Source: an uncultured Fimbriimonadales bacterium (GTDB taxonomy: Bacteria > Armatimonadota > Fimbriimonadia > Fimbriimonadales > GBS-DC). From it: a DNA stretch of 64,000 bases. The DNA lies in contig CALKLF010000005.1 in assembly GCA_937992175.1 (NCBI GenBank), forward strand, positions 695-64,694. Reading direction: 5' to 3'. Below the pieces are notes generated by a model. It saw only the letters and a program-made list of their open reading frames with translations, had not been told where the DNA came from and made no database searches. Below, piece by piece: positions 41 through 59,632 of the stretch. Position 1 is the stretch's first letter; each line of letters opens with the position of its first letter. The position numbers and the translations under genes were made by a program.

Positions 41-532
<492 letters not shown>

Positions 533-539
533 AGGGGGG

Positions 540-545
540 ATTGTA
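540..545 (-). promoter_or_regulatory. -10 box TACAAT (GGTACAAT), 7 nt upstream of the purE GTG; leaderless-type promoter
   Basis: Minus strand reads caGGTACAATcccccctGTG. Confidence 0.5.
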
Positions 546-587
546 CCTGAAGGAACAAGATTCCCCAACCAGTGGGCAAAGTGAAAC

Positions 588-671
588 TTAGTTACAAAGT
601 GACAGAAGGGTCGAATGATATCGAGGTTCTTGCTCCACGATGTAGATGATGATGTTGGAATCAATATACAC
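588..671 (-). pseudogene. PIN-domain (VapC-like) N-terminal remnant, 27 codons then stop
   Basis: Minus-strand GTG TAT ATT GAT TCC AAC... translates to (M)[26 protein letters not shown]. The hydrophobic-x-D-(S/T)-N start is typical of PIN toxins. The fragment sits in a low-GC spacer between lepA and purE. Confidence 0.3.
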
Positions 672-746
672 TGTACCAGTAAGTTGGTCTACTCCCATGC
701 GTCCCGTTCCTGGTTTTCATGGACGGTCTGATTATCCCACAGGTAG

Positions 747-2546
747 TTAGTCACCGACCTTCAGCACGCTCAGGAACGCCTCCTGCGGCACTTCCACTGC
801 GCCGACCTGTTTCATGCGCTTCTTGCCCTCTTTCTGGCGTTCCAGCAGCTTGCGCTTGCGCGTGATGTCGCCCCCGTAGCACTTGGCAATCACATTCTTG
901 CGGAACGGTTTAATCGTCTCGGAGGCAATTACACGCGCGCCAATCGCCGCCTGGATGCGCACCTCGAACTGCTGGCGCGGCACAACCTCTTTGAGCTTCT
1001 CGACCAGCGTGCGGGCGCGGGGGTAGGCACGCTCGCGCGGCGCAATAAAGCTCAGCGCGTCCACCGGGTCGCCGTTGATTAAGATATCGATTTTCACCAT
1101 ATCCGCCTCGCGGTAGCCTGCGGGTTCATAATCGAACGAGGCGTAGCCGCGCGTGCGGGTTTTGAGCTGGTCATAGAAGTCGAGCAGAATCTCGCTCAGT
1201 GGTAATCGGTAATACAGAATCACGCGCTGGGGCGTGGGGTACTCCATCTTCACGAACTCGCCGCGACGATTCATGCACAAGTCCATCACCGCGCCCACAT
1301 AGTCGTTCGGAACCATCACGGTCGCGTTCACAATCGGCTCCTCCACGCGCTCGATTTTGCCGGGATTGGGCCAGCGCGTGGGGTTGTCGATCTCCAGTAT
1401 CTCCCCGTCTTCCGTGTAGACGCGATAGGCGACGCTGGGCGCCGTGGCGATGAGTTCCAGCCCGAACTCGCGCTCCAGACGCTCCTGCACGATTTCCATA
1501 TGGAGCAGCCCCAGAAAACCGCACCGGAATCCGAACCCCAACGCCGCGCTATTTTCGGGTTCGAAGCTAATCGCGGCGTCATTCAGGCTCAGCTTCTCTA
1601 AGGCGTCGCGCAGGTCGGCGTACTTGTCGCCCTCCACAGGATACAGCCCGCAGAACACCATCGGCTTCACCTTGCGGAAGCCGGGCAGGGGTTCCCGCGC
1701 AGGGTTCTCCGCGGAGGTGATGGTATCGCCCACCTGCGCGTCCTTGACCGATTTGATCGACGCCGTGATGTAGCCCACTTCGCCCGTGTTCAGCGCGTTC
1801 GCAGGGCAGAGCTTCGGCGTGAAGTAGCCTACCTGCGCGACCTCAAAAGTCTTGCCGTTCGCCATGAACATAATCTTGTCGCCGGGCTTCACGCTGCCGT
1901 CCACCACACGCACATACGCCACCACGCCCACATAGGCGTCGTAGTGTGAGTCGTACACGAGGGCGCGCAGTGAGGCGTTCGGGTCGCCCTTCGGCGGCGG
2001 CACGCGCTCCACAATCGCGTCCAGAATCTCCTCGATGCCGATGCCTTCTTTCGCGCTCGCCAGAATCACCTCGTCGGGGTCGATGAGCAGCGCGTGTTCC
2101 ATCTCCTCTTTCACGCGCTCTGGCTCAGCGGCGGGCAGGTCGATTTTATTAATCACAGGCACAATCGCCAGCCCCTGATTATAGGCGAGGTTGGTGTTCG
2201 CAATCGTTTGCGCCTCCACGCCCTGCGCGGCGTCCACCACCAGAATCGCGCCCTCGCATGCAGCGAGGCTGCGCGACACCTCGTAGGTGAAGTCCACATG
2301 CCCCGGCGTGTCGATGAGATTCAGCTGGTAGGTGTTGCCGTCTTTGGCGGTATATTGCAGGCGCACGGCGGTCATCTTGATCGTGATGCCGCGCTCGCGT
2401 TCCAGGTCCATCGTGTCCAGTACCTGCTCGACGGGCGTCCCTTTCTGGATTGCGCCCGTGAACTCCAGCAGGCGGTCGGCTAAAGTGGACTTGCCGTGAT
2501 CCACATGAGCGATAATGCAGAAGTTGCGTATCAACGCCTGATTCAT
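747..2546 (-). CDS. lepA: Elongation factor 4 (LepA)
   Basis: 599-aa [38 protein letters not shown], and the C-terminal LepA region [23 protein letters not shown]. Confidence 0.97.
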
Positions 2547-2555
2547 AGCGAGGCA

Positions 2556-2561
2556 ATTGTA
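2556..2561 (-). promoter_or_regulatory. -10 box TACAAT, 9 nt upstream of the lepA ATG; leaderless-type promoter
   Basis: Minus strand reads caGGTACAATtgcctcgctATG. Confidence 0.5.
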
Positions 2562-2562
2562 C

Positions 2563-2763
2563 CTGAGCCAGTTTCAAGGAGCGTAGGGCGTAAAGAATCG
2601 CCTGCTCAATATCTTCTGACTGCAGATGAGGGTAGGCGCGCAGGATCTCTTCGTGAGTCGCGCCTGACGCGAGCAGCTCGAGGACAAACTCGACGCTGAT
2701 TCGTGTTCCCCGAATATGGGGTTTGCCTGATAGCACCTCGGGGTCAATGACAATTCTGTCCAG
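2563..2763 (-). pseudogene. DUF433-like (antitoxin-like) reading frame lacking a canonical start and its own stop
   Basis: Translation is LDRIVIDPEVLSGKPHIRGTRISVEFVLELLASGATHEEILRAYPHLQSEDIEQAILYALRSL, which fits the DUF433 pattern. The first ATG/GTG/TTG (GTG 2736) falls inside the conserved core. The frame has no stop until 2179, deep inside lepA. Confidence 0.4.
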
Positions 2764-2855
2764 TTGAGCGTCCTCACAAGTATTGTACCTAACACGCCTG
2801 TAAATCTGGTACTATACTGAGAGCAGGTTCTCCCAGTCTGTGGAACTGCTTCCTT

Positions 2856-4115
2856 GTGGCGTTGCCTCTAAACGATTCGATGTTGTGGCGGCGAGCGGAA
2901 ACCGAAGCGCGACAAGTGTCGCCCGACGAGTCCGAATGGTTCCTTCGGGTTCTGTGCGCGGGGTTCGGTCTCGATATGAATACGGCGCGACGCTTTTTTT
3001 ACGACGACCCCTATTTTGAGGTGAACCAGCGCTGGGGGTTGTGGCTCAACGAGCGCGGCGGTCAGACGCTCGTGTCGATTCTCACGGCGATTCCGCTCAC
3101 GATGTGGATTGGGGCGCGTCCTGTGCCGTTATACGGAATCGCGGGCGTGGCGACTTTGCCTGAGTATCGGCGACGGGGCTTCGCGGCGGAGTTGCTGCGT
3201 CAGACTTTGCAGAGCCTCTATCGCGAGGGCGCGCCGCTGGCGGTGCTACAGGCGTTTAATCACGAGTTCTACCGTAAGCTCGGCTGGGAGACAGTCGGCG
3301 CGATTGCCCATGCGCGCCTGACACCGAAGCAGTTGCCCCGTTATGACGGCGAGCCGCTGCGCCGCGCTGGAGCTGCTGACCACGAAGCAGTGATGAATTT
3401 GCACGCCCAGTATGGCGCTCGTCGCACAGGCAGCCTCGTCCGCGATAAACGCCGCTGGGAGTACCTGCTCTGGAACCTGCCGAACCTGTGGGTGTATGAG
3501 CGGAGCGGGCAGATAGAGGGGTACCTGTTTTACGACTTTCTCGATTCGGGCTGGACGCTGCGCGTGCGGGAGATGCTCTGGCGCAGCGAGCGGGCGCGGC
3601 GCGCAATTCTGGGCTGGCTTGCTGCGAACGAGGAGTCGGTACAGCAGGTGGAATTTCAGCTGCCTGTTGAAGCAGTCGCGTCGTTGGGGCTGCTGGGCTG
3701 GAGCGCGCCGCCGACCGAGCCGAGCCAGCCGTTTTACACGGTGCAGGTGCTGCCGAACTTCATGGCGCGACCTGTGCATGCGTCTGCGCTGCTGCGGGCG
3801 TTGCTGGAGGGCGCGCCCGCGCCTGAGGGATTTCAGCCGTTCAACTTGCGCGTGCGCGACAGCGTGCTGAAGGCAAATGGCGAAATGGCGAGCGTCAGCG
3901 CGGAAGGGGGACTATTGAAGGTGGGGAAAGCGTCGTCTGACTTGCCCGTTCTCAGCCTCGCGCCCACCAGTTTCGCGATGCTCGCTTTTGGCACGATGAG
4001 CGCGTCGGAACTCCATGCTCGCCGAATCCTGAACGCGCCCGAAACGCTGATAGAAACGCTGGAGCTGCTGTTCCCTGAACGCGCGCCCTGCCTCGCGCCG
4101 ATGGATTTTTTCTAA
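2856..4115 (+). CDS. GNAT N-acetyltransferase, Eis-like (GNAT plus C-terminal SCP2-like region)
   Basis: 419-aa ORF. Acetyl-CoA motif GIAGVATLPEYRRRGFAAELLRQ. The length and the tail ...LFPERAPCLAPMDFF fit the Eis/COG4552 architecture. Confidence 0.7.
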   Translation: MALPLNDSMLWRRAETEARQVSPDESEWFLRVLCAGFGLDMNTARRFFYDDPYFEVNQRWGLWLNERGGQTLVSILTAIPLTMWIGARPVPLYGIAGVATLPEYRRRGFAAELLRQTLQSLYREGAPLAVLQAFNHEFYRKLGWETVGAIAHARLTPKQLPRYDGEPLRRAGAADHEAVMNLHAQYGARRTGSLVRDKRRWEYLLWNLPNLWVYERSGQIEGYLFYDFLDSGWTLRVREMLWRSERARRAILGWLAANEESVQQVEFQLPVEAVASLGLLGWSAPPTEPSQPFYTVQVLPNFMARPVHASALLRALLEGAPAPEGFQPFNLRVRDSVLKANGEMASVSAEGGLLKVGKASSDLPVLSLAPTSFAMLAFGTMSASELHARRILNAPETLIETLELLFPERAPCLAPMDFF

Positions 4116-7761: not shown

Positions 7762-7770
7762 ATATCGAGG

Positions 7771-7776
7771 TACACT
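7771..7776 (+). promoter_or_regulatory. -10 box TACACT, 8 nt upstream of the nagA ATG; leaderless-type promoter
   Basis: Reads gaGGTACACTattaccgcATG. Confidence 0.45.
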
Positions 7777-7784
7777 ATTACCGC

Positions 7785-9002
7785 ATGGCGTTTCGGATTT
7801 ATTGCGGCGCGTTGGCGACCGACGGAAGTCGATACGAACAGCGCGCGCTGGTAGTCGATAAAGGGCGGATTGTCGCGTGGGAGCCGTATGACCCCCATCG
7901 CCTCGCGCGGATTGCGCCCCCTGATGTGGACGCGCGCGAGTATATCGCCCTACCTGGCATGATTGACCTCCACATCCACGGCGGCTTCGGACGCGATATG
8001 ATGGAGGGAACCCCCGAGGCAATTCAAGCCGTCGCGCAGCGTCTTGTGCAGCACGGCGTCACGGCGTTTCTGGCGACGCCGCTCACTGCGCCGTGGGACG
8101 CAATTAGAAATTGTATACGCGCCGCCCGCGAAGTGCGCGAACATGGCTCGGAAGGCGCGCGTGTGCTGGGATGCCACTTAGAGGGTCCCTTCATCAACCC
8201 CAAACGCGCAGGAGCGCAGCCCCCCGAATACATCCGCCCGCCCAGCGTGCGCGAACTGGAAACCGAACTGGGCGATTTGATGAGCGAGTTGCGCATCGTC
8301 ACTCTCGCCCCCGAGCTGGAGGGAGGGCTAGAGCTGACGCAGTATTTGACAGGGCAGGGGATTATCGTCTCCATCGGACACAGCGACGCGACCTACGAGC
8401 AGACCCTGCAGGCAATCGAACACGGCGCGCGCCACGCCACGCACACTTTCAACGCCATGCGCCCCTTCCAGCATCGCGACCCTAGCCTAGCGGGCGCGGT
8501 GATGCTGCGTGATGAGCTGACCGCTGAGATTATTTGGGACAATGTGCATACGCACCCCGCGACCGCGCACCTGCTGGTGAAGGCGAAGGGCATCGAGCGC
8601 GTCCTCTGCGTTTCGGACGGCACGACGGGCGTGGGCATGCCCGATGGGTACACATTTGAATTGTGGGGACATCGCGCCGTGGTACAGAATAGCGCGGCGC
8701 GTATGGTGGAGACGGGCGGACTGGCGGGCAGCACGATTGCGATGGACGCCTGCCTCATGCACTGCGCCGACACGCTGGGGCTGGAAGCCGCCTCGCTGCT
8801 GTGCGCCGCGAACCCCGCCCGCGCGCTGGGCTACGAAGGCGAACTGGGCACACTGCGACCCGGCGCGTGCGCGGACTTCATCCTCTGGAATCCGCGCACG
8901 CGGCAAATAGAGTATACTTTCATCGATGGCGTTCTAGAACAATTAGAATCGAAAACGGCAGGAGAACCTGTTTCTGCCACGAATCTCAATCCGTATCCCT
9001 GA
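7785..9002 (+). CDS. nagA: N-acetylglucosamine-6-phosphate deacetylase
   Basis: 405 aa. GMIDLHIHGGFG, HLEGPFINPKRAGAQ, SIGHSDATYEQ, THTFNAM. Confidence 0.9.
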   Translation: MAFRIYCGALATDGSRYEQRALVVDKGRIVAWEPYDPHRLARIAPPDVDAREYIALPGMIDLHIHGGFGRDMMEGTPEAIQAVAQRLVQHGVTAFLATPLTAPWDAIRNCIRAAREVREHGSEGARVLGCHLEGPFINPKRAGAQPPEYIRPPSVRELETELGDLMSELRIVTLAPELEGGLELTQYLTGQGIIVSIGHSDATYEQTLQAIEHGARHATHTFNAMRPFQHRDPSLAGAVMLRDELTAEIIWDNVHTHPATAHLLVKAKGIERVLCVSDGTTGVGMPDGYTFELWGHRAVVQNSAARMVETGGLAGSTIAMDACLMHCADTLGLEAASLLCAANPARALGYEGELGTLRPGACADFILWNPRTRQIEYTFIDGVLEQLESKTAGEPVSATNLNPYP

Positions 9003-10642: not shown

Positions 10643-11247
10643 TGCAACGGATTGCGGTCACGGGCGGCGTCGCCGAAGGCAAGACCACCATCTTGCAAAT
10701 CTTCGAGTCGCTGGGCGCAGTCACGCTTAGCAGCGACCGCATCGCGGCGACGCTCCTCCTTCCAGGGACGGACTTATGGAGAGAACTGATTCGGGAGTTT
10801 GGGCAGGCGATTATCGAGGCGGATGGCGCGCTGGCGCGCGAGCGGCTAGCGCAAATAGCGTTCGGCGACGCGCAGCTTCGCCGTCGCCTGAACCGCCTGA
10901 TGCACCCCGCGGTTGTTCGTGCGCTGGAGATGCAGCTCAACGCGCTGGAAACCGCCTCTGCATCTGCTGTTTTAATCGAGGTTCCGCTGCTCATCGAAAC
11001 AGGGTTGCAGGGCTGGTTCGACGGCGTGATTGTGGCGCAGGCGACCCCTGCGCTCCAGCGACGGCGACTTCTGGAACGAGGTGTTCCCCCAGAACGCGCA
11101 CGACAGATTATCCGGGCGCAACTCCCCACGCGCTGCAAGGTCGCCTTCGCCGACTGGGTAATCCGCACGCATCGCTCGCTGGAGCAGGTCGAGCGGCAGG
11201 CGCGTCGAATCTGGCAATCGCTGACCGAGTCGCGTGGGGTATACTGA
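10642..11247 (+). CDS. coaE: Dephospho-CoA kinase
   Basis: MQRIAVTGGVAEGKTTILQIF P-loop. 201 aa. TAATG overlap with the rpsA stop. Confidence 0.85.
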   Translation: MQRIAVTGGVAEGKTTILQIFESLGAVTLSSDRIAATLLLPGTDLWRELIREFGQAIIEADGALARERLAQIAFGDAQLRRRLNRLMHPAVVRALEMQLNALETASASAVLIEVPLLIETGLQGWFDGVIVAQATPALQRRRLLERGVPPERARQIIRAQLPTRCKVAFADWVIRTHRSLEQVERQARRIWQSLTESRGVY

Positions 11248-47215: not shown

Positions 47216-47251
47216 AGAGAGCCTCCTCAAATACGCGGGTAGTATACCTGC

Positions 47252-49093: not shown

Positions 49094-50176
49094 TCAGCCC
49101 TCCAGAACCCGCAGGTACTGCGCCACGATGTGGTTCTCCTCAAACTGCTGCAGCCATTCGGGGGGCGTGGGGGGAATCCTGCCCTGCAAGCCCTGCAGGA
49201 TGGCGTCCGCGAGCGCGTCTACATCGCCCACGGGAACCAGCAAGCCGTACTTTCCATCCGCTAAAATCTCGCGTGGTCCGCTGGGACAGTCCGTCGCCAC
49301 AACGGGGCAACCGCACGCCATCGCCTGAATCAGCGCGTTGGGCAACCCCTCATAGCGCGAACTCAGCACGAACACTGCAGCGCGACGCATATACTTGAAT
49401 GGGTTCGGTTCGTAGCCGGGCATTTGCACGCTGTCGGCGACGCCAAGTTCGCGTGTCAGTCGCTCCAGTTCAGTGCGTTGTTCGCCCTCGCCCAAAATGA
49501 GCAGCCGAGCAGGCACAGGTAAACGAGCGAAGGCACGCAGCAGCGTCGGGAAATCTTTCTGTGGGGTCAGTCGCCCCACCGCTAGCACGACGGGCGGCGC
49601 ACCCGCCGCGAACCATGAGTGGTCTACAGGCTCTTCACGCTGTTGCAGCAGTTTCCGCGTGATGACGGGGTTGTAGATGCATGGGATGCGCGTTTCGGGC
49701 AGGCGCGTGAGACGCAGCAAGTCCGCCTGCACGCCCTGGGAGACGGCGACAACTGCATCGGCGTGGCGGTAGGCGCGGGCAATCAGTGCGGGTACGAGAC
49801 GGTCCTTAAGTTTGACCGCGCTGCCGAACTCGCGGGTGGGGGTATTCGCCTCACGCACAACAACGCGGGTAGATACACGCGCCAGCCGCCGCGCCAGAAT
49901 CGCGACCAGATTTGGCTGGCTGAGCGTGCTGAGCAGCGCGTCGGGACGCTCGCGACGCAAATAGCGGACAAGCGGCAATACCGTGCGCCAGATGCGATAG
50001 GTTTTCAGGTCTACAATCTGTACGGCAGGGCTGAGTTCTTTGCGCAACTCGCCTTCTGGTTTCATCAACACCATCTGCACGCTGTGTCCGCACTCGGCGA
50101 AGCGGTTCGCGAGCGTGACCAGCACGCGCTCCGCGCCCCCAACTTCAAGGCTGACCGTGAACAGGGCGATTCGCAT
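49094..50176 (-). CDS. Glycosyltransferase family 4 (GT-B)
   Basis: MRIALFTVSLEVGGAERV and EGLPNALIQAMACGCPVVATD. Confidence 0.85.
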   Translation of the reverse strand: MRIALFTVSLEVGGAERVLVTLANRFAECGHSVQMVLMKPEGELRKELSPAVQIVDLKTYRIWRTVLPLVRYLRRERPDALLSTLSQPNLVAILARRLARVSTRVVVREANTPTREFGSAVKLKDRLVPALIARAYRHADAVVAVSQGVQADLLRLTRLPETRIPCIYNPVITRKLLQQREEPVDHSWFAAGAPPVVLAVGRLTPQKDFPTLLRAFARLPVPARLLILGEGEQRTELERLTRELGVADSVQMPGYEPNPFKYMRRAAVFVLSSRYEGLPNALIQAMACGCPVVATDCPSGPREILADGKYGLLVPVGDVDALADAILQGLQGRIPPTPPEWLQQFEENHIVAQYLRVLEG

Positions 50177-50181
50177 GATGT

Positions 50182-51189
50182 TTACTGGCGAATGGCGACC
50201 ACGCGAAAGCTTTTCGCCCAGCGCAAACTAAGGGGCGTGAGGCGCATCAGCAAAGCGTTCGCAAGACGCACAATAGGTTTGCCGCTCGCCCCGCCAAAGT
50301 AAGCGTAGGCGCGCGCCCGAAAGCCGAACTGCTCGATATGGCGGGCTAACTCCACCGGGTGGAACAGTCGCTCAATCACTGCGCCCGAATAGGGGTTCAC
50401 GGGGCACTGCGTCGGGTCATACACCGAGTTCGGCAGCTCGCCTGTCTCGAGATATCGCTCTACCGCCTGGAAAATTGCATGGCGCGTCATCAGGCTGGTG
50501 CGCTGCGCCAGAGCCTGTACTGCCGCCTCAGGTAAGTCGGGGTACGCTTGCTGGATTATCTCGGCGCGCTGCTCCACATACGGTTTCTGGATAGTGTGCC
50601 CCTCAAACTCGCCAGCGGGACCGCTCTCGAAACGCTGCCAGAGTTGGCGAGTGTGCGCCGCGAGTTGGGGGTTCGCCGCGTTGTTGCCGTCGGCGATGAT
50701 GAGCGCGCCCCCGCGTTTGAGCCAGCGCGCCGCCCGCCTCAAAAGCTCGTCCACATCGGGATAGTGCGAAATCTCCTCGTTGGAGAGAATCAGATCGAAC
50801 GAAGCGAGTTCGTACTCTACTTCGTCCAGCGAAGCAAGCTGCGCCTGCATACCTTGCAGGTTGAAATCGGTAATCAGTCGCTGGAAGGTGCGCAGGCGGC
50901 TTTCGCTCAGATCGAAGCCAATCGCTTCACGCGCGCCCATAAAATACAACACGACGAGCTGCAAGCCGAATCCGCAGCCCGCGTCCAGCACACGCTTGCC
51001 TTCGGGGTCAAAACGCGCCAGCCGACACAGGTCGTACACATAGCGCGTCTCCTGAGTGCAACCCTGCGGGGTTTTCAGCTGCGGGTAGTAGCGCCAGAGT
51101 TCAGGATCATAGCGCGCCCGATTCTCAGGGCGCGCCGCCTGCTCAAACAGCGCGGCGACCTGCTGGCTTACACGGGCAAACTCGGGCAT
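50182..51189 (-). CDS. Class I SAM-dependent methyltransferase with a long C-terminal extension
   Basis: VLDAGCGFGLQLVVLYFMG motif I. Start set to ATG 51189, which lies 9 nt downstream of GGTATAAT. Confidence 0.75.
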   Translation of the reverse strand: MPEFARVSQQVAALFEQAARPENRARYDPELWRYYPQLKTPQGCTQETRYVYDLCRLARFDPEGKRVLDAGCGFGLQLVVLYFMGAREAIGFDLSESRLRTFQRLITDFNLQGMQAQLASLDEVEYELASFDLILSNEEISHYPDVDELLRRAARWLKRGGALIIADGNNAANPQLAAHTRQLWQRFESGPAGEFEGHTIQKPYVEQRAEIIQQAYPDLPEAAVQALAQRTSLMTRHAIFQAVERYLETGELPNSVYDPTQCPVNPYSGAVIERLFHPVELARHIEQFGFRARAYAYFGGASGKPIVRLANALLMRLTPLSLRWAKSFRVVAIRQ

Positions 51190-51198
51190 CAGAGGGTT

Positions 51199-51204
51199 AT
51201 TATA
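51199..51204 (-). promoter_or_regulatory. -10 box TATAAT, 9 nt upstream of the methyltransferase ATG; leaderless-type promoter
   Basis: Minus strand reads ttGGTATAATaaccctctgATG. Confidence 0.45.
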
Positions 51205-51217
51205 CCAACCCCCATCC

Positions 51218-51889
51218 TTACGGCACAATAATCAACCCACTGGTCGACGCGCCGCGCAGCACATGCTGTACGAACGCGGGCTCAGGCAGTGCGCCCTCGA
51301 AACTGTGGCGGTTGTTGATGACGGTCTTAGGCACTGCCATCACGCCGTACTGATTGGCTAACTCAGGGAACTCCTCGCTGCTGACGCCCTCGGCGGTAAT
51401 CAGGTCGCTCGCCATCGCCAGTTTATGCGCCAGTCGCACGGCGGCGGGGCAGTACGGGCAGCCGTAAGTCACAAACACGCGAATATGCACGGGATGGCGC
51501 AGGTTCGCCAGCATCAGGCGGCTGTCGGGCGAGAGACCAGGGTCGCCCCTGCCCACATCCTCAATCGCGCCCACCAGTGAGGCGAACTCGAAGCCCGCGG
51601 GCACGCCCAGATAGCGGATTCCGTAGTCCTTCTCTTCCGTGCGCACGACAATCGCGGGCGCGAGCGTGATGTTGTATTCCTGCGCAACCGTCGGCTCCGC
51701 TTCTACACTATGCTGCTCCAGCGTAATCTTGCCGCCCCCGATGCTCACTAAGTCCTGCGCGATTTGCGACAATAGCTCGCAGGTCTCAGGTTGCTCGTTC
51801 GTGGTGAACACGACCAGCTTCACGGTGTTCTGCAAACCGCTAAACCACTGCTGTAATGTCTGTCTATCTTTTTCCGGTAGAATGGTCAT
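51218..51889 (-). CDS. Two-unit thioredoxin-fold protein disulfide oxidoreductase (PDO/glutaredoxin-like, CPYC)
   Basis: VFVTYGCPYCPAAVRLAHKLA...GVMAVPKTVIN. The N-terminal unit lacks CxxC. AAGGAGG lies upstream. Confidence 0.7.
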   Translation of the reverse strand: MTILPEKDRQTLQQWFSGLQNTVKLVVFTTNEQPETCELLSQIAQDLVSIGGGKITLEQHSVEAEPTVAQEYNITLAPAIVVRTEEKDYGIRYLGVPAGFEFASLVGAIEDVGRGDPGLSPDSRLMLANLRHPVHIRVFVTYGCPYCPAAVRLAHKLAMASDLITAEGVSSEEFPELANQYGVMAVPKTVINNRHSFEGALPEPAFVQHVLRGASTSGLIIVP

Positions 51890-51956
51890 CGTCGCCTCCT
51901 TGTTGACTCCACTCGAGTAGAGTACCTAAAACGGAGTTTCGATTCGCCGAGAAGCC

Positions 51957-52571
51957 TCAACGTAGAAAATCGCCCACCCTGATTTCCCACTCAGGCTCGC
52001 ACAGAGGGCGAACCGTTTCATCTGCCGTGTAATGTTGCACGGTCTGATAGCCTTGCGGCGTCGGGTCTCGGTACACCTCCAGCCGCCGCGTTTCAAGATT
52101 CACAATCCAGTATTCAGGGATTCCTGCCTGCGCATACAGGCGAGCTTTTCTGGTCTGGTCATGCTCGACGGAAGTATCTGCAATCTCAATCACCAGTAGC
52201 GCGCTGGTGGGGTGGGCATGAGCATAATCGTCGAGGTCGCCCTCGACGATGCTGATGTCAGGTATGGGTTCGTTGTCGCCCAGTTGCAGGGGCGCTTCCA
52301 TGCGCACATGCCATCGGCTCGATTCGCGACGGGCGAACTGGCGTGTGGCGCGTAGACGAGTCGTTGCGTGGTCAGGTTCTTCGGGCGGCATAGTGTAGAT
52401 GTCCCCCTCAATCAGTTCCAGCCTCGCGTCGGCAGGGAACACGCCCAGCGCGCCCAGCCGATGGAACACATCAGGCGTGAATCGATAGCGCTGGGGCGCG
52501 CCCGCTCGGGCGGCGTCCGCAGAGGTCTTGGGACGCGGTTTCAGAACAGGCATAGCATAAGGATACCCCAC
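51957..52571 (-). CDS. Uma2-family (DUF820) endonuclease-fold protein
   Basis: LELIEGDIYTMPPEEPDHA...PDISIV...LLVIEIADTSVEHDQTRKARLYAQAGIPEYWIVNL. Confidence 0.8.
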   Translation of the reverse strand: MGYPYAMPVLKPRPKTSADAARAGAPQRYRFTPDVFHRLGALGVFPADARLELIEGDIYTMPPEEPDHATTRLRATRQFARRESSRWHVRMEAPLQLGDNEPIPDISIVEGDLDDYAHAHPTSALLVIEIADTSVEHDQTRKARLYAQAGIPEYWIVNLETRRLEVYRDPTPQGYQTVQHYTADETVRPLCEPEWEIRVGDFLR

Positions 52572-54668
52572 CTATCCCCTCCGCTGTGCGCCGTGCTGCG
52601 TTTCCAGCGCAACGAAAATCGCCTCCACGAGCGCGTTCACTTCCTCGTCCGTAAGGGTGCGGTTCGGGTCGCGGAACACGAGCGAGAACGCGAGGCTGTG
52701 ATGCCCTTCAGGCACGGGCGTACCCGTGTAGCGGTCGAAGAGGCGCAGCGACTCCAGCAGAGCGCCCCCCGCCTCGCGAATCGTCGCCTCCAGCGATGCA
52801 TAAGGCACAGACTGCTCGACCACGAACGCAATATCACGCAGCACAGGCGGGAAGGCGGGCAGCGGGCGATAATGCACAGTGTGCGCCGCCGCATGCATCA
52901 GCGGCGTCAAGCCAAACTCGGCTAAATAGACGCGCTGGCGGAACTCGTACTGCTTTTGCAACTCGGGATGCAACTCACCCAGCACGCCCAGCCGCTGGTC
53001 ATGGGCGTCATGCACATACGCCGAGCGCATGGGATGGAGCCGATGGTCACGCCCTTCAGCGGGAACGAACTGCGCGCTTATCCCCAGCTCGCTCAGCAGA
53101 TGCTCCACCACGCCCTTGAGCGCGTAGAAGTCGGCGGGCTGGGGCTTCAACGCCCAGTGTAGGACGTGCAGCAGCCCTGTCATCAGGATTCCCAGGCGCG
53201 TCCACTCGTGGAACTTGCCCTGTTCATCCTGTGCGAACACGCGCCCGATTTCGAACAGGTGCAGCTCGCGACGGTTGCGACGGCGGTTGTGGTCGGCGGC
53301 GCGAATCAGGCTGCTCATCAGCGAGTGGCGCAGGCAGCTGAGTTCATCGCTCATCGGGTTCTGCAGAGGCACAGGCTGATACATCAGCTCGCCAATCCCC
53401 TCGCCGCCGCTCTGCAAAGGTGAGGGAGCTTCTAAGGTGTGCCCCACAACCTCCTGCAAACCAGCGCTGAGCAACACAGTGCGCACGCGCTCGGCGAACG
53501 CGCCTTCAGGACTGTCTTTGCCCTGCGTCGTGTAGCCCTGCGGAGGAATTGCGGGGATCCGGTCGTAGCCGAGAATGCGCCCCAGCTCCTCGATCAGGTC
53601 TTCCTCGCGCAGTAGGTCGGCGCGATAGAACGGGATCTGCACGCGAAAGCCCCCCTCGATGGGTTCTGGGCGCAGGTTCAGCCGCTCCAGCACGGCACGC
53701 GCCGCATCGGGGGCGATCGAGAAGCCCAGCAGCCGTTCGGCGCGTTGCAGACGCACCGTGAGCGTGCGTGGCTCGTAAGGGCGCGGGTAAACATCGATAA
53801 TCCCAGGTACAGCCTTCACGCCCGTCCACTGCGCCAGCAGTTCACAGACGCGATGCTGCGCGACAATCACAAGGTTCGGGTCTACGAACCGTTCAAATCG
53901 GTACGACGACTCGGTGCGCAGCCCCAGCTGGCGGGCGGTGGAGCGAATCGACATGGGATGGAAGTGCGCCGATTCAATCAAGATATGGCGCGTGTCGTCC
54001 GTCACTTCGGTTTCTGCGCCGCCCATCACGCCGGCAACGGCAACGGGACGCTCGGCGTCGCAAATCATCAGCATATCGGAGCGGAGTTCGTGTACCTGCC
54101 CGTCGAGCGTCTGAATCCGCTCGTGGGGTTCGGCGCGGCGCACGATAATTGTGTGTTCCTTGAGTGTGTGCAGGTCGAAGGCGTGCAGGGGTTGCCCCAG
54201 TTCGAGCATGACATAGTTCGTGGCGTCCACGATGTTGTTGATGGGGCGCATGCCCGTCGCGAGCAGGCGATTCTGCACAGACGCAGGCGACGGCGCGGGC
54301 TTGATGTCGCGAATCACGCGCGCGGCGTAGCGGGGGCACAAGTCGGCGTCGCGGATTTCCACACGGGCATATTCAGCGGTCTGCAACGGCTCGGCGGGCG
54401 GCGGGTTCAGTATCTGCGCGTTGAGCCTGTGAAACAGCTCGGTTGGGCGCGCCTCCTCGCCCAGCAGGGCGTAAACCTCTCGCGCCACACCGAACACGCT
54501 CAAACAGTCGCCCCGATTGGGCGTGATGTACATCGACAGCACCGCGCTCTGCGGCGTGTCCAGCACTTCCTCCACTTCCAGCCCCGCCATCGTCAATCGC
54601 TCGGCGAGGGCTTCGGGCGACAGCTCCACCTGCACAAAATCCTTTAGCCACTCGATGGGTATGCGCAT
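52572..54668 (-). CDS. pheT: Phenylalanine-tRNA ligase beta subunit, short form lacking the N-terminal OB/tRNA-binding insert
   Basis: MRIPIEWLKDFV...ITPNRGDCLSVFGVAREV...GMRPINNIVDATNYVMLELGQPLHAFD. The internal ATG at 54668 lies 8 nt downstream of GGTACAAT. Confidence 0.9.
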   Translation of the reverse strand: MRIPIEWLKDFVQVELSPEALAERLTMAGLEVEEVLDTPQSAVLSMYITPNRGDCLSVFGVAREVYALLGEEARPTELFHRLNAQILNPPPAEPLQTAEYARVEIRDADLCPRYAARVIRDIKPAPSPASVQNRLLATGMRPINNIVDATNYVMLELGQPLHAFDLHTLKEHTIIVRRAEPHERIQTLDGQVHELRSDMLMICDAERPVAVAGVMGGAETEVTDDTRHILIESAHFHPMSIRSTARQLGLRTESSYRFERFVDPNLVIVAQHRVCELLAQWTGVKAVPGIIDVYPRPYEPRTLTVRLQRAERLLGFSIAPDAARAVLERLNLRPEPIEGGFRVQIPFYRADLLREEDLIEELGRILGYDRIPAIPPQGYTTQGKDSPEGAFAERVRTVLLSAGLQEVVGHTLEAPSPLQSGGEGIGELMYQPVPLQNPMSDELSCLRHSLMSSLIRAADHNRRRNRRELHLFEIGRVFAQDEQGKFHEWTRLGILMTGLLHVLHWALKPQPADFYALKGVVEHLLSELGISAQFVPAEGRDHRLHPMRSAYVHDAHDQRLGVLGELHPELQKQYEFRQRVYLAEFGLTPLMHAAAHTVHYRPLPAFPPVLRDIAFVVEQSVPYASLEATIREAGGALLESLRLFDRYTGTPVPEGHHSLAFSLVFRDPNRTLTDEEVNALVEAIFVALETQHGAQRRG

Positions 54669-54676
54669 CGGGGAAG

Positions 54677-54708
54677 ATTGTACCTGAATGCAGGTCGGCA
54701 GGTACAAT
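54677..54708. promoter_or_regulatory. Palindromic pair of divergent -10 boxes (pheT on the minus strand; histidine kinase on the plus strand)
   Basis: ATTGTACCTGaatgcaggtcggCAGGTACAAT: perfect 10-bp inverted repeat, each arm containing TACAAT. Confidence 0.5.
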
Positions 54709-54790
54709 TGTGGCACTCGGTATTCCGATTAATATGAGTAGGAAAACTTGTGAACTGCCATAATTCAAAGTAGGAAATCAGGAGGTTCCC

Positions 54791-55972
54791 ATGACTGAAC
54801 AGACGACTCAGTCGCTACAGCAAGAGTTAGAAAAGTTGCGTAGGCGTGTTGCGGAGCTGGAACATGCCCTCGAAGTGCAGGAGTGGGGGGGACAGCTGTT
54901 TCACGAAAGCAACATCCCGCAACTGTTGCTCGATTTCGAGACAGGGGCGATTCTCGCAGCGAACGCTGCGGCGCATCGGTTTTACGGCGAATCGCTCCGG
55001 ACTCATCCGCATGTGAACTGCATCTGTGCGGAGAATCTTGACTGGAATGCCGAGCTCAAGCCCGTCGTTGCCCAGCAGCGTTATGGGATGCGGGTCTCGC
55101 AACAGCATACCGAGAACGGCGTGCGCACGGTCGAGGCGCACTATGTTCTGGTGAATTTGCGTGGCAGACAGATTGTTCACCTAATCGCGTTCGATATTAC
55201 CGACCGTCTTCGGGCACAAGAGGAGTTGCAACGCACCTACCGTCTGGAAAGCATTGGGCGACTGGCTGGCGGGATTGCACACGACTTCAACAATGTGCTG
55301 ACCGCTGTGGTGGGGTTTGCGGAACTGGCGCGCGGGCGCGTGCAGGACGAAACCACACTGCGCTATCTGGACGGCATCCTCGCCGCCGCCGAGCGCGCGG
55401 CGAATCTCAACCGCCAGCTGCTTGCCTACGCCCGCCGACAGGTGGCGCAGCTCAGCCCTATTGATCTCGGTGTATGGCTGCACAACACGCTGGATATCCT
55501 GCGCCGTGTGCTGCCTGAGAATATTCGCCTCGAAACGTCGGTAGACCCCCAGCTGGGCTCGATTCAGGGCGACCCCAACCTGCTATTGCAGATTGTGCTG
55601 AACTTAGTGGTGAACGCACGCGACGCGATGCCCAACGGCGGCCCGATTACTCTTAGCTTAAAAAACCGCACACTCCGCCGCGCCTGTGGCGACGTCCCTG
55701 CAGGACGCTATGTCACGCTCACCGTGGCTGACACGGGCGTCGGTATCCCGCCCGAGGCACTGCCCCACATCTTCGAACCCTTCTACACCACGAAACCGCA
55801 GGGACATGGTACCGGGCTAGGACTGGCGGCGGTGCAGGGCGCAGTGCAACAACTGGGCGGCTATATTACGGTAGAGTCGGAAGTGGGCAAGGGAACCCGC
55901 ATCACGGTCTACTTCCCGCGCCTGACCCCGCCCACGCCGCCTCCGCGAACTGAAAATACTCAGGCGGAATAG
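54791..55972 (+). CDS. Cytoplasmic sensor histidine kinase (coiled coil, PAS, HisKA, HATPase_c)
   Basis: H-box GGIAHDFNNVLTAV, N-box VVNARDAM, G-boxes DTGVGI and GTGLGLAAV. AGGAGG lies upstream. No response regulator is adjacent. Confidence 0.9.
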   Translation: MTEQTTQSLQQELEKLRRRVAELEHALEVQEWGGQLFHESNIPQLLLDFETGAILAANAAAHRFYGESLRTHPHVNCICAENLDWNAELKPVVAQQRYGMRVSQQHTENGVRTVEAHYVLVNLRGRQIVHLIAFDITDRLRAQEELQRTYRLESIGRLAGGIAHDFNNVLTAVVGFAELARGRVQDETTLRYLDGILAAAERAANLNRQLLAYARRQVAQLSPIDLGVWLHNTLDILRRVLPENIRLETSVDPQLGSIQGDPNLLLQIVLNLVVNARDAMPNGGPITLSLKNRTLRRACGDVPAGRYVTLTVADTGVGIPPEALPHIFEPFYTTKPQGHGTGLGLAAVQGAVQQLGGYITVESEVGKGTRITVYFPRLTPPTPPPRTENTQAE

Positions 55973-56399
55973 CTGCGACCGCGCCGTCAGTGTAAAACGG
56001 CGGAACAAGCCCCTCTCGCTCTAGGCGCAGCAACTCGCGGTTCACAGGCGGATAGTTCGTTGGCTCGAAACGCTTAGCCAGCGCGTCGGGCACATTGATA
56101 CCTAAATGGAGTAACCCATACACTCCGAAATAGCCATATACCCCTGCGCGGGCGAGACGGCGCACTGTTTGCGGGCGTCGGCGCAGTCCCCACTCGATAA
56201 TTATCAGCGGTGCCGCCACCAGCAGCAGCTTCACCCCTACAAACGCGCCTAACCCATAGTCAAGATAGTACTGCATCAGGGGATTCGCCTCATTCGCCAG
56301 CCCGCGCGAGAGCAGCCATACCGTTAACGCCAAATCCGCCATACACAGGGCGAAAAGCGCCCAGCTTTCAACGCTCAGAAAACACAGTATGCTTCGCAT
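55902..56399 (-). CDS. DUF5658-like membrane protein
   Basis: [24 protein letters not shown]... followed by further TM helices. GAAGGAG lies upstream. The 3' end overlaps the kinase gene convergently by ~70 nt. Confidence 0.55.
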
Positions 56400-56531
56400 C
56401 GTTCACTCCTTCACAAAACCGACTGCACGGTTCTATATCCATTTTCGGCAGGAAGTATGGTATCCTTAAGGTGTCCCCTGCGCTGTCGCGTGGACGCTCA
56501 AGGCAGAGCCATAGGCTGGAGGAACAGAACG

Positions 56532-58097
56532 ATGTCGAAGCATGCTGATCGGACGACTGTACCAAGCAATTTAGAGATTGAGAATCTTTTAGGTCAAGCG
56601 AAACCCTTATATCACAATCTATCAGTAGCCAGTTTAGTAGAGCATGCAATTATCAACGGAGAAGCGCAGTTGGCATCGAACGGCGCGTTGGTGGCGCGCA
56701 CGGGGCAATACACAGGACGCTCCCCCAAAGACAAGTTCGTGGTGCGCCGCGCCGAGTATGAGTCGCTCATCGACTGGGGCGCGGTGAACCAGCCGATGGC
56801 TCCTGAGGTCTTTGACCGCTTGTTGCTACGCGTTTTGGCGTATCTGAGTAATCGCCCGCTGTATGTGCAGGATTGCTTCGCAGGCGCAGACCCGCGCTAT
56901 CGGCTCGGCGTGCGGGTGATTACCGAGCAGGCGTGGCATAACCTGTTCGCGAAGCAGCTCTTCATTCGTCCCACGCCTGAGGAACTGCCCGACTTTCGCG
57001 CCAACTTCACCGTGTTACACGCGCCGGGCTTCAAGACCGACCCGACGGTGGACGGAACGCGCAGCGAGGTGGTCGTCGCGCTTGATTTCACGCGGCGCAT
57101 CGTGCTGATTGCGGGCACAGCGTATGCCGGCGAAATCAAAAAGTCGATTTTCACGGTGATGAACTTCCTGCTGCCGTTGCAGGGCGTGTTTCCGATGCAC
57201 TGCTCGGCGAATATCGGCGCGGCGGGCGATGTCGCGCTCTTTTTCGGGCTGAGCGGCACGGGCAAGACCTCGCTCTCCGCCGACTGCGAGCGTCGCCTGA
57301 TTGGCGACGACGAACACGGCTGGAGCGACACAGGCGTGTTCAACTTCGAGGGCGGCTGCTACGCCAAGTGCATCAACCTCTCGCGCGAGCACGAACCGCA
57401 AATCTGGAACGCCATCCGCTTCGGCAGCGTGGTGGAGAATGTGGTCGTAGACGCCGACACACGCGAGCCAGACTACACCGACGCCTCGATCACCGAGAAC
57501 ACGCGCGCGGCATACCCTGTCGATTATATCGACGGCGCGGTGCTGCCGAGTGTGGGCGGGCATCCACGCCATCTGTTTTTCCTTGCGGCGGATGCGTTCG
57601 GCGTCCTGCCCCCTATCAGTCGCCTGAGCGTGGAGCAGGCGATGGATATGTTCCTGCTCGGTTACACAGCGAAGGTCGCGGGCACGGAGCGCGGCGTGAC
57701 GGATCCTGAGGCGACCTTCAGCGCGTGTTTCGGCGCGCCGTTCCTGCCCTTGCCCCCCGCCCGCTACGGCGAAATGCTCGCGGAGAAACTCAGTCAGCAC
57801 AAGGCGCAGGCGTGGCTGGTGAACACGGGCTGGACAGGCGGCGCGTATGGCGTGGGGCATCGAATCCCCATCCGCTATACCCGCGCGATGATCCGAGCCG
57901 CGCTGAACGGCGCTTTAGAGCAGGTTGGCTACCGCACCGACCCGATTTTCGGGCTGGAGACGCCTGTTTCTGTGCCCGATGTGCCCGACGACCTGCTCGT
58001 GCCGCGCGAAACCTGGCAGGATAAAACCGCCTACGAGGCGCAGGCGCGCCAGCTCGCCGAGCGGATGCAGCAGCAACTCAAGAAAGTGCGCGGCTAA
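56532..58097 (+). CDS. pckA: Phosphoenolpyruvate carboxykinase (ATP)
   Basis: [49 protein letters not shown] 56532 follows GGAGGA. Confidence 0.95.
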
Positions 58098-58131
58098 TCT
58101 GCTGCTTCGTCAACCATTAATCTTTGGAACC

Positions 58132-58179
58132 CCCTCCGTAGGTTCCCACTACGCAGTAGAGGGAACCTGTAGGAGCTGA
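58132..58179 (+). terminator. Long imperfect hairpin 35 nt after the pckA stop
   Basis: cctccgtAGGTTCCCACTACgcaGTAGAGGGAACCTgtaggag. No clear U-tract follows. Confidence 0.35.
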
Positions 58180-58226
58180 TAAGCAGACACCGACTAAGTA
58201 CACTCTCGCCGCGCGGGACGCCGACT

Positions 58227-58294
58227 GTTTCCACCTCACCCCCCTTGCCCTCCTCTCCGTTTACAGAGAGGGGGTTGGAGGGTAAGGTGGAAAC
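58227..58294. repeat. G/C-run nested-hairpin repeat (family copy C)
   Basis: GTTTCCACCtcaccccccttgccctCCTCTCcgtttacaGAGAGGgggttggagggtaaGGTGGAAAC. Confidence 0.6.
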
Positions 58295-58407
58295 AGCGTG
58301 GGAAATCGCCGGCGCGTTTCCCCCAGTTGAGGTCAGGTCGTGTACCATGATTAGACCTGTAGGAGCGGGTTCCAAAAATTGAGCGTGGACACAGCACTAC
58401 TTTCAGG

Positions 58408-58413
58408 TACACT
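58408..58413 (+). promoter_or_regulatory. -10 box TACACT, 7 nt upstream of ATG 58421; leaderless-type promoter
   Basis: Reads caGGTACACTttttgccATG. Confidence 0.45.
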
Positions 58414-58420
58414 TTTTGCC

Positions 58421-59632
58421 ATGGAAACCCTGCTTGCCGACGCGCTGCAATCTGTGCGCGAGCGACTGCTGCAGCCTGAAGGAGATGCGGAAACCCTGCG
58501 CGAACTCGCTATCCTGTTGCGTGACGCGAGTCTCGGCTGGACGCAGCTGCCCGAGGAAGTTCGCTCCAGCGTTCAACTCGCGTTGCAGAGTGCGCTGCCT
58601 CTGAACGAAGGCTCCATTCAGATTTTGCTGGAGGAGCTGAGCGCGCATCAGAAGGCGGTGGGACGCGCGGCGGCGCAGGCGCAAGCGCGCCGCTACCCCG
58701 CCCCGCGCGAGGCGCAACGCGCCTACGAACTGCTGACCGACGCTCCCGCCGATGCCCCGACAACGCGAATCGAAGGCGCGATTCTGGCGGCGGAACTCGT
58801 CGAGCCGAACGCTTCCCTTAGCGTACGCGCCGATAACCTCATCCGCGCTCTCTACGCCAAGCAGCCGTTTCCTGAATACAACGCCAGCGTCGCCGCGCTG
58901 CTTGGACTGGCGTTTCTGCAGGCGAACGGCGTCGCCGCCGAGCTGAGCGCGGCGCAGTCACAATCCCTAATCGAGGCGATTGTTCAGGGTGCGCCGCTGA
59001 ACCTGCCCGAAGCCACAGGTGTGCCCGACCCGCGCGTGTGGAGCGACATTCTGGATGAACTCGCGGCGCGCTATCGCGCTGCTTTCCTGCAAGCCGAGCG
59101 CGCTCTACAAGCAACCCAGCTCGTGCGCATCGAGAACCTGCCTGAGACCACGCGAGCGACGCTCCAGCCCGCGCCCGGACCTAGCTTCGAATGGCGGTAT
59201 CTCACTTTGCAAGACCTCATTTGGATTAACAGCGAGATTACGAAGTCGCCGCAGCCCTACAGCTATGACCGTCTGGAGGAGGCGACCCATTATCAATACA
59301 GTTATCGCCAGAGCCGTGATGTGCCGTTGCAGGCGGCGCGGTTCCTGTGGGGCTACCTGAAGTACCACCCCTTCGCACAGGGCAACCGGGCGACCGCTCT
59401 GATTGCGACGCTCGCATTTTTACACATCAACGGCTACGAGACGCGCCTGCCCGTTGAACACGCCGCAGAGTGGATCGAGCAGGTCGCCCTGCGCCGCAAG
59501 CATCCGCTGGACGCTATCCGCCAGATTGCCGCGCCTGCCCTGCCCGGTAAGCAGCCCGAACCTTTGCGTGAACTGGCGCACCATTTGATTGAGCATTACG
59601 AAGCGGCGTTGCATTCGCTCGCGGGGAAGTAA
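58421..59632 (+). CDS. Fido (Fic/Doc)-domain protein with a degenerate active-site motif and a long helical N-terminal region
   Basis: The C-terminal region carries YLKYHPFAQGNRATALIATLAFLHINGYE. Compare Fic HxFx(D/E)GNGRxxR and Doc HxFx(D/N)(A/G)NKR. Confidence 0.55.
   Translation: METLLADALQSVRERLLQPEGDAETLRELAILLRDASLGWTQLPEEVRSSVQLALQSALPLNEGSIQILLEELSAHQKAVGRAAAQAQARRYPAPREAQRAYELLTDAPADAPTTRIEGAILAAELVEPNASLSVRADNLIRALYAKQPFPEYNASVAALLGLAFLQANGVAAELSAAQSQSLIEAIVQGAPLNLPEATGVPDPRVWSDILDELAARYRAAFLQAERALQATQLVRIENLPETTRATLQPAPGPSFEWRYLTLQDLIWINSEITKSPQPYSYDRLEEATHYQYSYRQSRDVPLQAARFLWGYLKYHPFAQGNRATALIATLAFLHINGYETRLPVEHAAEWIEQVALRRKHPLDAIRQIAAPALPGKQPEPLRELAHHLIEHYEAALHSLAGK

Follow-up and report, generated by a model that had tools for sequence, protein, structure and literature searches.

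In the 64-kb stretch of DNA analysed here (61% GC; hereafter the window), the octamer GGTAnnnT, which lies within the longer consensus tTCAGGTAyAmT, most likely serves as the −10 element in the host's main class of sigma-70-family promoters; at ∼20% of genes this element is adjacent to the start codon, an arrangement expected to produce leaderless mRNAs. Judged by a single marker, lepA, the source organism is an uncultured member of Armatimonadota. The top named relatives in a LepA protein search were Armatimonadota (92%), Fimbriimonadia (81%), Armatimonadetes (76%), Chthonomonadetes (74%) and Chthonomonas calidirosea (73%). A pattern-based LepA scan of reference genomes had its best match in a Chthonomonadales metagenome-assembled genome (69%), with Paenibacillus close behind (66%); in pattern-based lepA scans of genomes and metagenomes, relatives never exceeded 69% and synteny was not seen. 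The matching contigs of the ENA metagenome assemblies ERZ6863514 and ERZ6864471 supplied independent gene calls and Pfam hits.

A first-pass annotation of the window had listed twelve start codons situated 6–9 nt downstream of a TAnnnT hexamer and lacking a Shine–Dalgarno (SD) sequence. We assessed the positional enrichment on gene-caller starts only, none of them chosen by the reader who had made that list; the null model was shuffling of each upstream 60 nt. GGTAnnnT was observed at a gap of 6–9 nt (the distance between the hexamer and the start codon) in 8 of the 54 genes, compared with a mean of 0.21 in the shuffled sequences and a maximum of 4 in 20,000 shuffles. For the bare hexamer TAnnnT the same gaps contained 10 genes versus 2.5 expected (p = 5e-5). 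With only the first 44 genes taken into account, we saw eight TAnnnT versus ∼1.5 expected from other gap positions and seven GGTAnnnT versus 0.35 expected. The enrichment of TAnnnT proposed in the first pass holds in the window at independently called starts.

The 60 copies of GGTAnnnT on both strands of the window are not above the composition expectation; 22 of them sit in intergenic DNA, which makes up 6.9% of the window, while the intragenic copies have unremarkable hexamers, e.g. TAGCCT, TAGGCT and TAATCT. Among the 16 dinucleotides that may precede TAnnnT, GG was the most enriched in sense-oriented upstream versus genic DNA of the window (18-fold; 4.97 versus 0.28 GG-TAnnnT per kb), and its share of TAnnnT prefixes was 37% upstream versus 6% in genic DNA (Fisher p = 1e-9). 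We also made an annotation-free count, in which TAnnnT had to be followed after 6–10 nt by the first ATG or GTG of an open reading frame (ORF) of at least 100 aa, with a gap of 16–20 nt as a control. The window gave 11 cases versus 1 in the control, the commonest prefix being GG (6 of 11), and the Armatimonadota relatives gave 26 versus 12, again with GG the commonest (15 of 26). The count was 19 versus 1 in Thermoleophilia (leaderless-rich Actinobacteria), with CC or CG as the commonest prefix, and 18 versus 30 in Bacillota, with no prominent prefix. The GG flank is therefore specific to the lineage and does not characterize leaderless promoters in general.

All twelve combinations of hexamer, gap and start codon from the first-pass list are present in the sequence (Table 1). 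In eleven of them the hexamer is preceded by GG, so that the site reads GGTAnnnT, 6–9 nt, then ATG or GTG. The twelfth, at the GGDEF gene, did not stand up as an example: besides having no GG, its hexamer is not TAnnnT, and GATAAT is here the reverse complement of the plus-strand octamer GGTATTAT at 45516. This octamer (45516–45523, +) is located in the stretch that separates lpdA from the GGDEF gene; it is directed antisense into the 3′-end of lpdA and has no ORF behind it.

To check the start codons, we aligned NCBIfam equivalog models with the N-termini of the claimed products; PheT was checked by alignment to a PDB chain. According to these alignments (Table 1), the start codons indicated by the box are correct, exactly or to within a few residues, for purE, lepA, nagA, thiS, rmlB and pheT, with a looser fit for ctaB; a start further downstream is impossible for purE, lepA, thiS, rmlB, nagA and ctaB. 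The gene caller had placed two of the starts elsewhere. Its purE start, ATG 508, is the conserved Met within the first strand (V-I-M-G-S), and the product is cut by eight residues. Its pheT start, GTG 54716, adds 16 aa and is contradicted by homology, as residue 2 of the PDB PheT chain 2rhq_B aligns just after the Met encoded at 54668. Here the starts chosen in the first pass with the motif as a guide (GTG 532 for purE and ATG 54668 for pheT) are better than those of the caller. For two other genes with motif-guided starts, those of the S-adenosylmethionine (SAM) methyltransferase and the Fic-domain protein, the caller had independently picked the identical codons, and it also uses the box-adjacent start of the 83-aa ORF. 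In this lineage, public gene calls seem to misplace starts systematically at leaderless genes. A separate observation concerns the length of PheT (52572–54668, −), which has only 698 aa. Its alignment with solved bacterial PheT chains covers residues 2–40 and picks up again at ∼158, and in the TIGR00472 alignment model position 158 is where the match continues, at residue 40; the ∼100-residue N-terminal tRNA-binding (B2/OB-fold) domain appears to be missing from the predicted protein.

The genes with the box differ from the rest in their pairing with the anti-SD sequence. The predicted duplex energy of the 20 nt before the start averaged −4.3 kcal/mol in the 14 genes with a box at gap 5–10 versus −8.2 kcal/mol in the other 40 genes (Mann–Whitney p = 0.002). 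Most of the non-box genes carry GAAGGAGG, AAGGAGG or GGAGG; GAAGGAGG-type sites were seen at S1, orf592, orf897, orf231, PfkB and others. These energies agree with the two initiation modes suggested in the first pass, i.e. box genes without SD and most other genes with a strong SD. Several non-box genes overlap or abut the gene upstream, which suggests translational coupling. The box type accounts for 8 of the 28 genes having a divergent upstream region or one of at least 50 nt; at nagA, the 83-aa ORF and the SAM methyltransferase gene the box is in an 18–28 nt spacer behind a co-oriented gene.

One part of the window is occupied by a co-oriented run of very large secreted-type genes (11300–27056, +), which encode, among others, an 1849-aa CarboxypepD_reg/PD40 protein, a 592-aa protein, an S8 peptidase with FlgD_ig, an 897-aa FlgD_ig protein and a Big_1/invasin protein. 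All of these genes have very strong GAAGGAGG sites and none is leaderless.

The octamer was also found 20–160 nt upstream of SD-led genes, both inside the window (Table 1) and beyond it, as one would expect if it is a general −10 element, which the first-pass annotation had supposed. Of the SD-led genes named there, lpdA, the Eis-like gene and the histidine kinase gene do have the box, but the Eis-like gene is not SD-led, with no SD at either of its candidate starts; for the fourth, a ‘methyltransferase’, both box and SD are present, but the gene appears to be the thioredoxin-like one at 51218–51889. The start of PEPCK at 56532, used by the caller, agrees with the SD and with homology. Second boxes found upstream of lepA and purE may give rise to alternative long-leader transcripts or small RNAs. 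Two candidates for leaderless translation behind these boxes were rejected on the G+C content of their codon positions: a 67-aa ORF behind the box at 2789, with 0.69 at third positions (GC3) and 0.37 at first positions (GC1), and a TTG-initiated extension of purE behind the box at 677, where the stretch looks non-coding (GC3 0.45).

The consensus was derived from 24 aligned GGTAnnnT sites (11 start-adjacent, 10 further upstream and 3 outside the window), the GG being fixed by definition of the set. Outside the search pattern, the conserved columns were T at −17 (13/24), C at −16 (13/24), A at −15 (14/24; T and G 5 each, C none), C or T at −10, A at −9 (19/24) and A or C at −8 (22/24); the box consensus is tTCAGGTAyAmT. 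G at −13 is near-invariant at start-adjacent sites (7 of 8 at caller starts). There was no information at positions −35 to −30 in the 24 sites. A two-hexamer TTGACA/TATAAT scan of 40500–60000 found 7 promoters versus 5.1 ± 2.1 expected, i.e. no enrichment, and flagged a single box site, that of the Fic-domain gene (TGGACA-16-TACACT); another of the few −35-like matches is TTGCAT, 18 nt upstream of the ctaB box. The box sites do not have the canonical sigma-70 architecture, with both hexamers and a 16–18 bp spacer. The sole perfect canonical promoter in the scanned region has no GG box and precedes the strongly SD-led gene of a 188-aa PEP-CTERM protein. The classical extended −10 element, found in E. 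coli, Bacillus and mycobacteria, is TGn. As in TGn promoters, a weak or absent −35 element goes here with bases just 5′ of the hexamer, G at −14 among them; unlike in TGn promoters, T at −15 is not preferred (5 of the 24 sites read TGG, thus having T at −15 and G at −14), while the G at −13, the n of TGn, is near-invariant. At two places between divergent genes, 2782–2815 and 54677–54708, boxes stand back-to-back as inverted repeats, ATTGTACC-N16/18-GGTACnAT, the second repeat being made of the pheT box and the histidine kinase box. Two other origins of the motif were rejected: a structured RNA, as Rfam and tRNA scans of the window returned no family and no tRNA, and a repeat or mobile element, as the sites share merely 11–12 nt.

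Table 1. GGTAnnnT sites and other promoter-like sites in the window; the number between box and start codon is the gap in nt
Gene or feature	Coordinates	Strand	Site	Position and start check
purE	530–547	−	GGTACAAT-7-GTG; spacer ccccccT	GTG at 532; TIGR01162 model position 1 at residue 5 of the GTG-532 product
lepA	2544–2563	−	GGTACAAT-9-ATG	ATG at 2546; TIGR01393 model position 3 at residue 6; caller start identical
nagA	7769–7787	+	GGTACACT-8-ATG	ATG at 7785; box within 23-nt gap behind FHA gene; model position 9 at residue 10
thiS	30667–30686	−	GGTATAAT-9-ATG	ATG at 30669; TIGR01683 model position 2 at residue 4
75-aa ORF	31120–31136	−	GGTACACT-6-GTG	GTG at 31122; ATG 6 nt further in
rmlB (dTDP-glucose 4,6-dehydratase)	31286–31303	+	GGTATCCT-7-ATG	ATG at 31301; TIGR01181 model position 2 at residue 5
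83-aa membrane ORF	35251–35267	−	GGTATACT-6-ATG	ATG at 35253; box begins 6 nt past pstB stop
ctaB	41037–41055	+	GGTACAAT-8-ATG	ATG at 41053; model position 2 at residue 22 (looser fit); caller start identical
SAM methyltransferase	51187–51206	−	GGTATAAT-9-ATG	ATG at 51189
pheT	54666–54684	−	GGTACAAT-8-ATG	ATG at 54668
Fic-domain gene	58406–58423	+	GGTACACT-7-ATG	ATG at 58421
GGDEF gene	45509–45524	−	ccGATAAT-7-GTG	GTG at 45511; weak case
lpdA	47241–47248	−	GGTATACT	25 nt before start; SD GAGGAGG
Thioredoxin-like gene (51218–51889)	51919–51926	−	GGTACTCT	29 nt before start; SD AAGGAGG
Giant CarboxypepD_reg gene	11238–11245	+	GGTATACT	54 nt before, within coaE 3′-end
Eis-like acetyltransferase gene	2808–2815	+	GGTACTAT	64 nt before start
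PEPCK	56459–56466	+	GGTATCCT	∼65 nt before SD-led start ATG 56532
Histidine kinase	54701–54708	+	GGTACAAT	82 nt before SD-led gene
rpoZ	63131–63138	−	GGTAATAT	∼125 nt before; TTGATT 18 nt upstream of box
DUF5658 gene	56556–56563	−	GGTACAGT	156 nt before; antisense within first PEPCK codons
Second lepA box	2782–2789	−	GGTACAAT	235 nt upstream of lepA; forms a back-to-back pair with eis box; not followed by a coding ORF
Second purE box	670–677	−	GGTACAGT	137 nt upstream of purE; a gap of 6 nt separates it from an in-frame TTG
Sole perfect canonical promoter in 40500–60000	59863–59892	+	TTGACA-18-(TGc)TATAAT	

A TAnnnT skeleton whose fourth base is A is the −10 signature of group-1 sigma factors, and transcription usually starts ∼7 nt after the hexamer. 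With the box 6–9 bp before ATG or GTG, this usual start point falls at or just before the start codon. We infer that the housekeeping sigma factor would bind the box, and that the box would work with little or no −35 element. At ∼20% of genes, where the box is 6–9 bp (in relatives up to 11 bp) upstream of ATG or GTG, RNA polymerase would start at the start codon or 1–4 nt before it; the mRNA would then have no room for an SD, and the ribosome with initiator tRNA would bind the 5′-terminal start codon, i.e. use the leaderless route. The other genes would combine this box, placed further upstream, with a strong GGAGG-type SD, or else rely on translational coupling in operons. Where the box is in a short spacer behind a co-oriented gene, a read-through mRNA would present the gene without an SD, and the box-derived transcript is probably the translatable one. 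Each prediction of the leaderless reading that could be tested at the sequence level held, be it position, the SD dichotomy, start codons or conservation.

Some observations weigh against this interpretation. The genes FHA1, M20 peptidase, N6 methyltransferase and Eis-like are first in their units and have neither an adjacent box nor an SD (the N6 methyltransferase gene has AGGTATAAG ∼50 nt upstream). The AGGT of caGGTA pairs weakly with the anti-SD (−3.9 kcal/mol). The spacers range from 6 to 11 nt, with a flat distribution from 7 to 10, and are on average longer than in Deinococcus or Mycobacterium. Also, the overall sample is small, relatives having contributed ∼115 kb in addition to the ∼64 kb analysed here.

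The longer spacers, along with the frequent G at −3, mean that zero-nucleotide leaders are not assured and that some transcripts may have leaders of 1–4 nt. One could go further and suppose that the boxes are true promoters but that most of the transcripts have such leaders (G, GC or GCU), starting ∼7 nt after the hexamer, and are translated by the leaderless route at reduced efficiency or by an SD-independent 30S route. We regard this as unlikely, though it deserves the most serious consideration among the alternatives. With gaps of 6–11 nt, just 4 of 34 sites have the gap of 6 nt, and G is the commonest base at −3 (15/34); lepA, nagA and ctaB have G at the seventh nucleotide past the hexamer. 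Still, the spacers are pyrimidine-rich beside the start codon, positions −1 and −2 being ∼30% purine and the spacer as a whole 41% purine (p = 0.002). These pyrimidines next to the purine of the start codon favour initiation at that purine or at a G 1–3 nt upstream; a −1/−2 composition of ∼70% pyrimidine followed by a purine is the preferred Y(−1)R(+1) context (for the purine preference see PMC3898074). In purE, with its all-pyrimidine spacer ccccccT, the first available purine is the G of GTG. Besides, transcripts with very short leaders count, and are translated, as leaderless in Deinococcus deserti (PMC4007540).

Evidence for leaderless genes of the same type was found outside the window. 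On the same organism's contig, in the 9 kb past the left edge, three of seven called genes are box-adjacent at caller starts (GGTACAAT-8-ATG, GGTAAAAT-9-ATG and GGTAAAAT-10-ATG; L001 15390, 19412 and 20758), and past the right edge GGTATACT and GGTATCAT occur 20–45 nt ahead of two SD-led genes. For the relatives, we examined the called starts around lepA in five loci, from organisms that were either named or close. L164 (LepA 92%) has the box at gap 9–10 in four genes and at gap 11–17 in three more, with three leadered genes also having a box; in L165 (88%) the gap is 8 for three genes and 11 for one. In L167 (76%) a count by eye gave three genes at gap 7–10, and lepA in addition at gap 11; another octamer of this locus, also at gap 11, overlaps GGAGG and looks like an SD. 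In L166 (Fimbriimonadia, 81%) a single gene out of 15, lepA, has the arrangement, and in L168 (C. calidirosea, 73%) a single leaderless-type gene out of 20 does, the acetyltransferase gene at 16305–16871 (caGGTATAAT-6-ATG), while GGTAAAAT and GGTATCAT precede SD-led genes of L168. By these counts the leaderless fraction looks high in the clade of the window and low in Chthonomonas and the Fimbriimonadia locus. Over the window and the five relatives, GGTAnnnT was found at gap 5–11 in 29 of 147 called genes (20%); in the outside-window sequence and relatives GG-TAnnnT was 10-fold enriched upstream (p = 1e-9).

The lepA gene keeps GGTAnnnT 7–11 nt before ATG in the window, L164, L165, L166, L167, L084, L085 and L160; C. 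calidirosea and the Chthonomonadales locus L002 have not kept the arrangement. When the region upstream of lepA in L002 (9951–10015) is compared with the window (2532–2596, −), the SD-containing cAGGAGcAAT is seen at the aligned position of cAGGTAcAAT, and upstream of it there is a new TATAAT. The comparison suggests that two substitutions can switch lepA between the leaderless and the SD-led mode. Since only two substitutions separate GGTA from GGAG, conversion of a −10 box into an SD and back could occur.

In L164, two divergent spacers of 44–46 bp (2976–3019 and 15798–15843) each have two boxes, 8–9 bp apart and 9–12 nt from ATG. The absent −35 signal and the back-to-back boxes fit a promoter carried by the extended −10 region alone, and an element so compact would allow two promoters within a divergent spacer of this size; two polymerases could hardly bind the paired boxes of L164 simultaneously. 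One could speculate that all Armatimonadota share a −35-independent promoter of this kind, with the A-G-G flank at −15 to −13 replacing TGn and sufficing alone, start-adjacent at a fifth of genes, and with the −10 box and the SD convertible into each other. We offer this wider reading tentatively, at somewhat less than even chances.

The identity of the factor that reads the box admits another interpretation, namely that an alternative sigma factor or a global DNA-binding regulator recognizes the motif and that the genes form its regulon. Such a regulon would have to embrace unrelated housekeeping genes (lepA, pheT, purE, thiS, ctaB, lpdA, rpoZ and PEPCK) and roughly 20 of the ∼28 transcription-unit starts. 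The conserved tTCAGG flank is indeed unusual for a housekeeping −10 element, two of the sites are inverted repeats, and the window has one perfect TTGACA-18-TATAAT promoter, which lacks GG; against these points, T-A-n-n-n-T with A at −9 typifies the −10 elements of group-1 sigma factors, the sites are mostly single copies and not palindromes, and the motif is conserved across Armatimonadota classes. We consider a regulon quite improbable.

Even less probable is that the motif acts in translation, with AGGT(A) as a degenerate SD or an enhancer on longer mRNAs made from upstream promoters. Here the AGGT is 11–15 nt from the start codon, past the usual SD spacing, and the conserved T-A-n-n-n-T and the A at −9 play no part in SD pairing. 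The pairing energy given above, the read-through possible at the three boxes in 18–28 nt gaps behind co-oriented genes and the AGGAG at the aligned position in L002 could be cited for a translation signal, but the identical motif occurs 20–160 nt upstream of genes with strong SDs of their own as well as back-to-back in divergent pairs, and the equivalent motif of Deinococcus radiodurans is not replaceable by a ribosome-binding site (PMC12340547). Finally, chance combined with motif-guided choice of starts (4 of the 12 starts had been picked with the motif in mind) was tested and rejected as next to impossible, since none of the 20,000 shuffles reached the count observed at independent caller starts, the four starts in question were confirmed by homology (purE and pheT) or by the caller (SAM methyltransferase and Fic), and the pattern recurs outside the window and in relatives.

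Earlier, it was experimentally shown that in D. radiodurans TANNNT (mostly TACACT) located 6–7 bp before ORFs is a −10 element, mostly without −35; this 2025 study proved the mechanism and found that the motif could not be replaced by a ribosome-binding site (PMC12340547). Independence of −35 is experimental in D. radiodurans (PMC12340547), while in Mycobacterium tuberculosis it was inferred (PMC3898074). Leaderless transcription was mapped experimentally in M. tuberculosis (PMC3898074) and D. deserti (PMC4007540). In many phyla leaderless genes were predicted from TANNNT ∼10 nt before starts by Zheng et al. in 2011 (PMC3160421). Group C of GeneMarkS-2, with 1028 of 4769 bacterial genomes, has 25–50% of operons predicted as leaderless; the main members named are Actinobacteria and Deinococcus-Thermus (PMC6028130).

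The window shares with Deinococcus-Thermus (D. radiodurans, D. deserti and Thermus thermophilus) the TAnnnT before ATG or GTG, seen there in ∼20–30% or more of genes (PMC12340547, PMC4007540), as well as the favoured hexamers TACACT and TACAAT, the general lack of −35, the division into box genes without SD and other genes with a GGAG-type SD, and the usefulness of the motif for correcting start codons. It differs in that the host belongs to Armatimonadota, in the near-invariant GG at −14/−13 and the A at −15, which were not reported there, and in spacers of 6–11 nt versus 6–7 bp; also, the present system is a prediction from sequence. In M. tuberculosis TANNNT is found 6–8 nt before starts (PMC6028130), and its flank is [G/C][A/G]N, mostly CGN (PMC3898074). 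Actinobacteria likewise have no −35 consensus and accept GTG as a leaderless start, and in them, too, the bases 5′ of the hexamer carry lineage-specific information; however, the flank here is A-G-G, unlike the mostly CGN flank of M. tuberculosis and the CC or CG of the sampled Thermoleophilia loci. The mixture of two signals, a Pribnow box ∼10 nt before the first genes of operons and an SD elsewhere, is as in group C of GeneMarkS-2 (PMC6028130).

Our literature search found nothing linking Armatimonadota with leaderless mRNAs or describing their promoters, and no mention of the GGTANNNT consensus. Fimbriimonas ginsengisoli is in the list of genomes scanned in PMC12340547, where we found no result for this species. 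The leaderless architecture itself is known; Armatimonadota are a phylum-level instance of it with a local sequence flavour, not a new mechanism. The general understanding of leaderless expression is unchanged, and a specialist would not be surprised. What is gained is (i) an extension of the list of phyla with frequent leaderless initiation past Actinobacteria and Deinococcus-Thermus; (ii) a concrete promoter consensus for a phylum which, as far as the searched literature shows, had no characterized promoter; (iii) a GGTAnnnT rule that would improve the annotation of Armatimonadota, known almost exclusively from metagenomes, at genes whose starts are misplaced by gene callers; and (iv) specific hypotheses on sigma–DNA contacts and start-site selection, suggested by the GG flank and the long spacers.

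Among the start-adjacent sites, that of the 75-aa ORF has a good box, but it is uncertain whether the ORF is a gene: it is absent from the gene calls and has no Pfam hit, GC3 is 0.62 and the codon bias is modest. Together with an overlapping 47-aa ORF called by the gene caller (30779–31122, −), it resembles the remnants of a small two-gene module with no family match. The 75-aa ORF has a FVLGGASALVFYTEP motif reminiscent of nucleotidyltransferase folds. Within 31140–31216 (−), a region that has no Rfam match, a terminator-like hairpin, GGGGCTGAAGCGaccGCTTCAGCCC then TTTTGCTT, directly abuts this box, and just upstream there is an inverted repeat, CCTCATAAGGAGG...CTTATGAGG, holding an SD-like sequence with no start codon after it.

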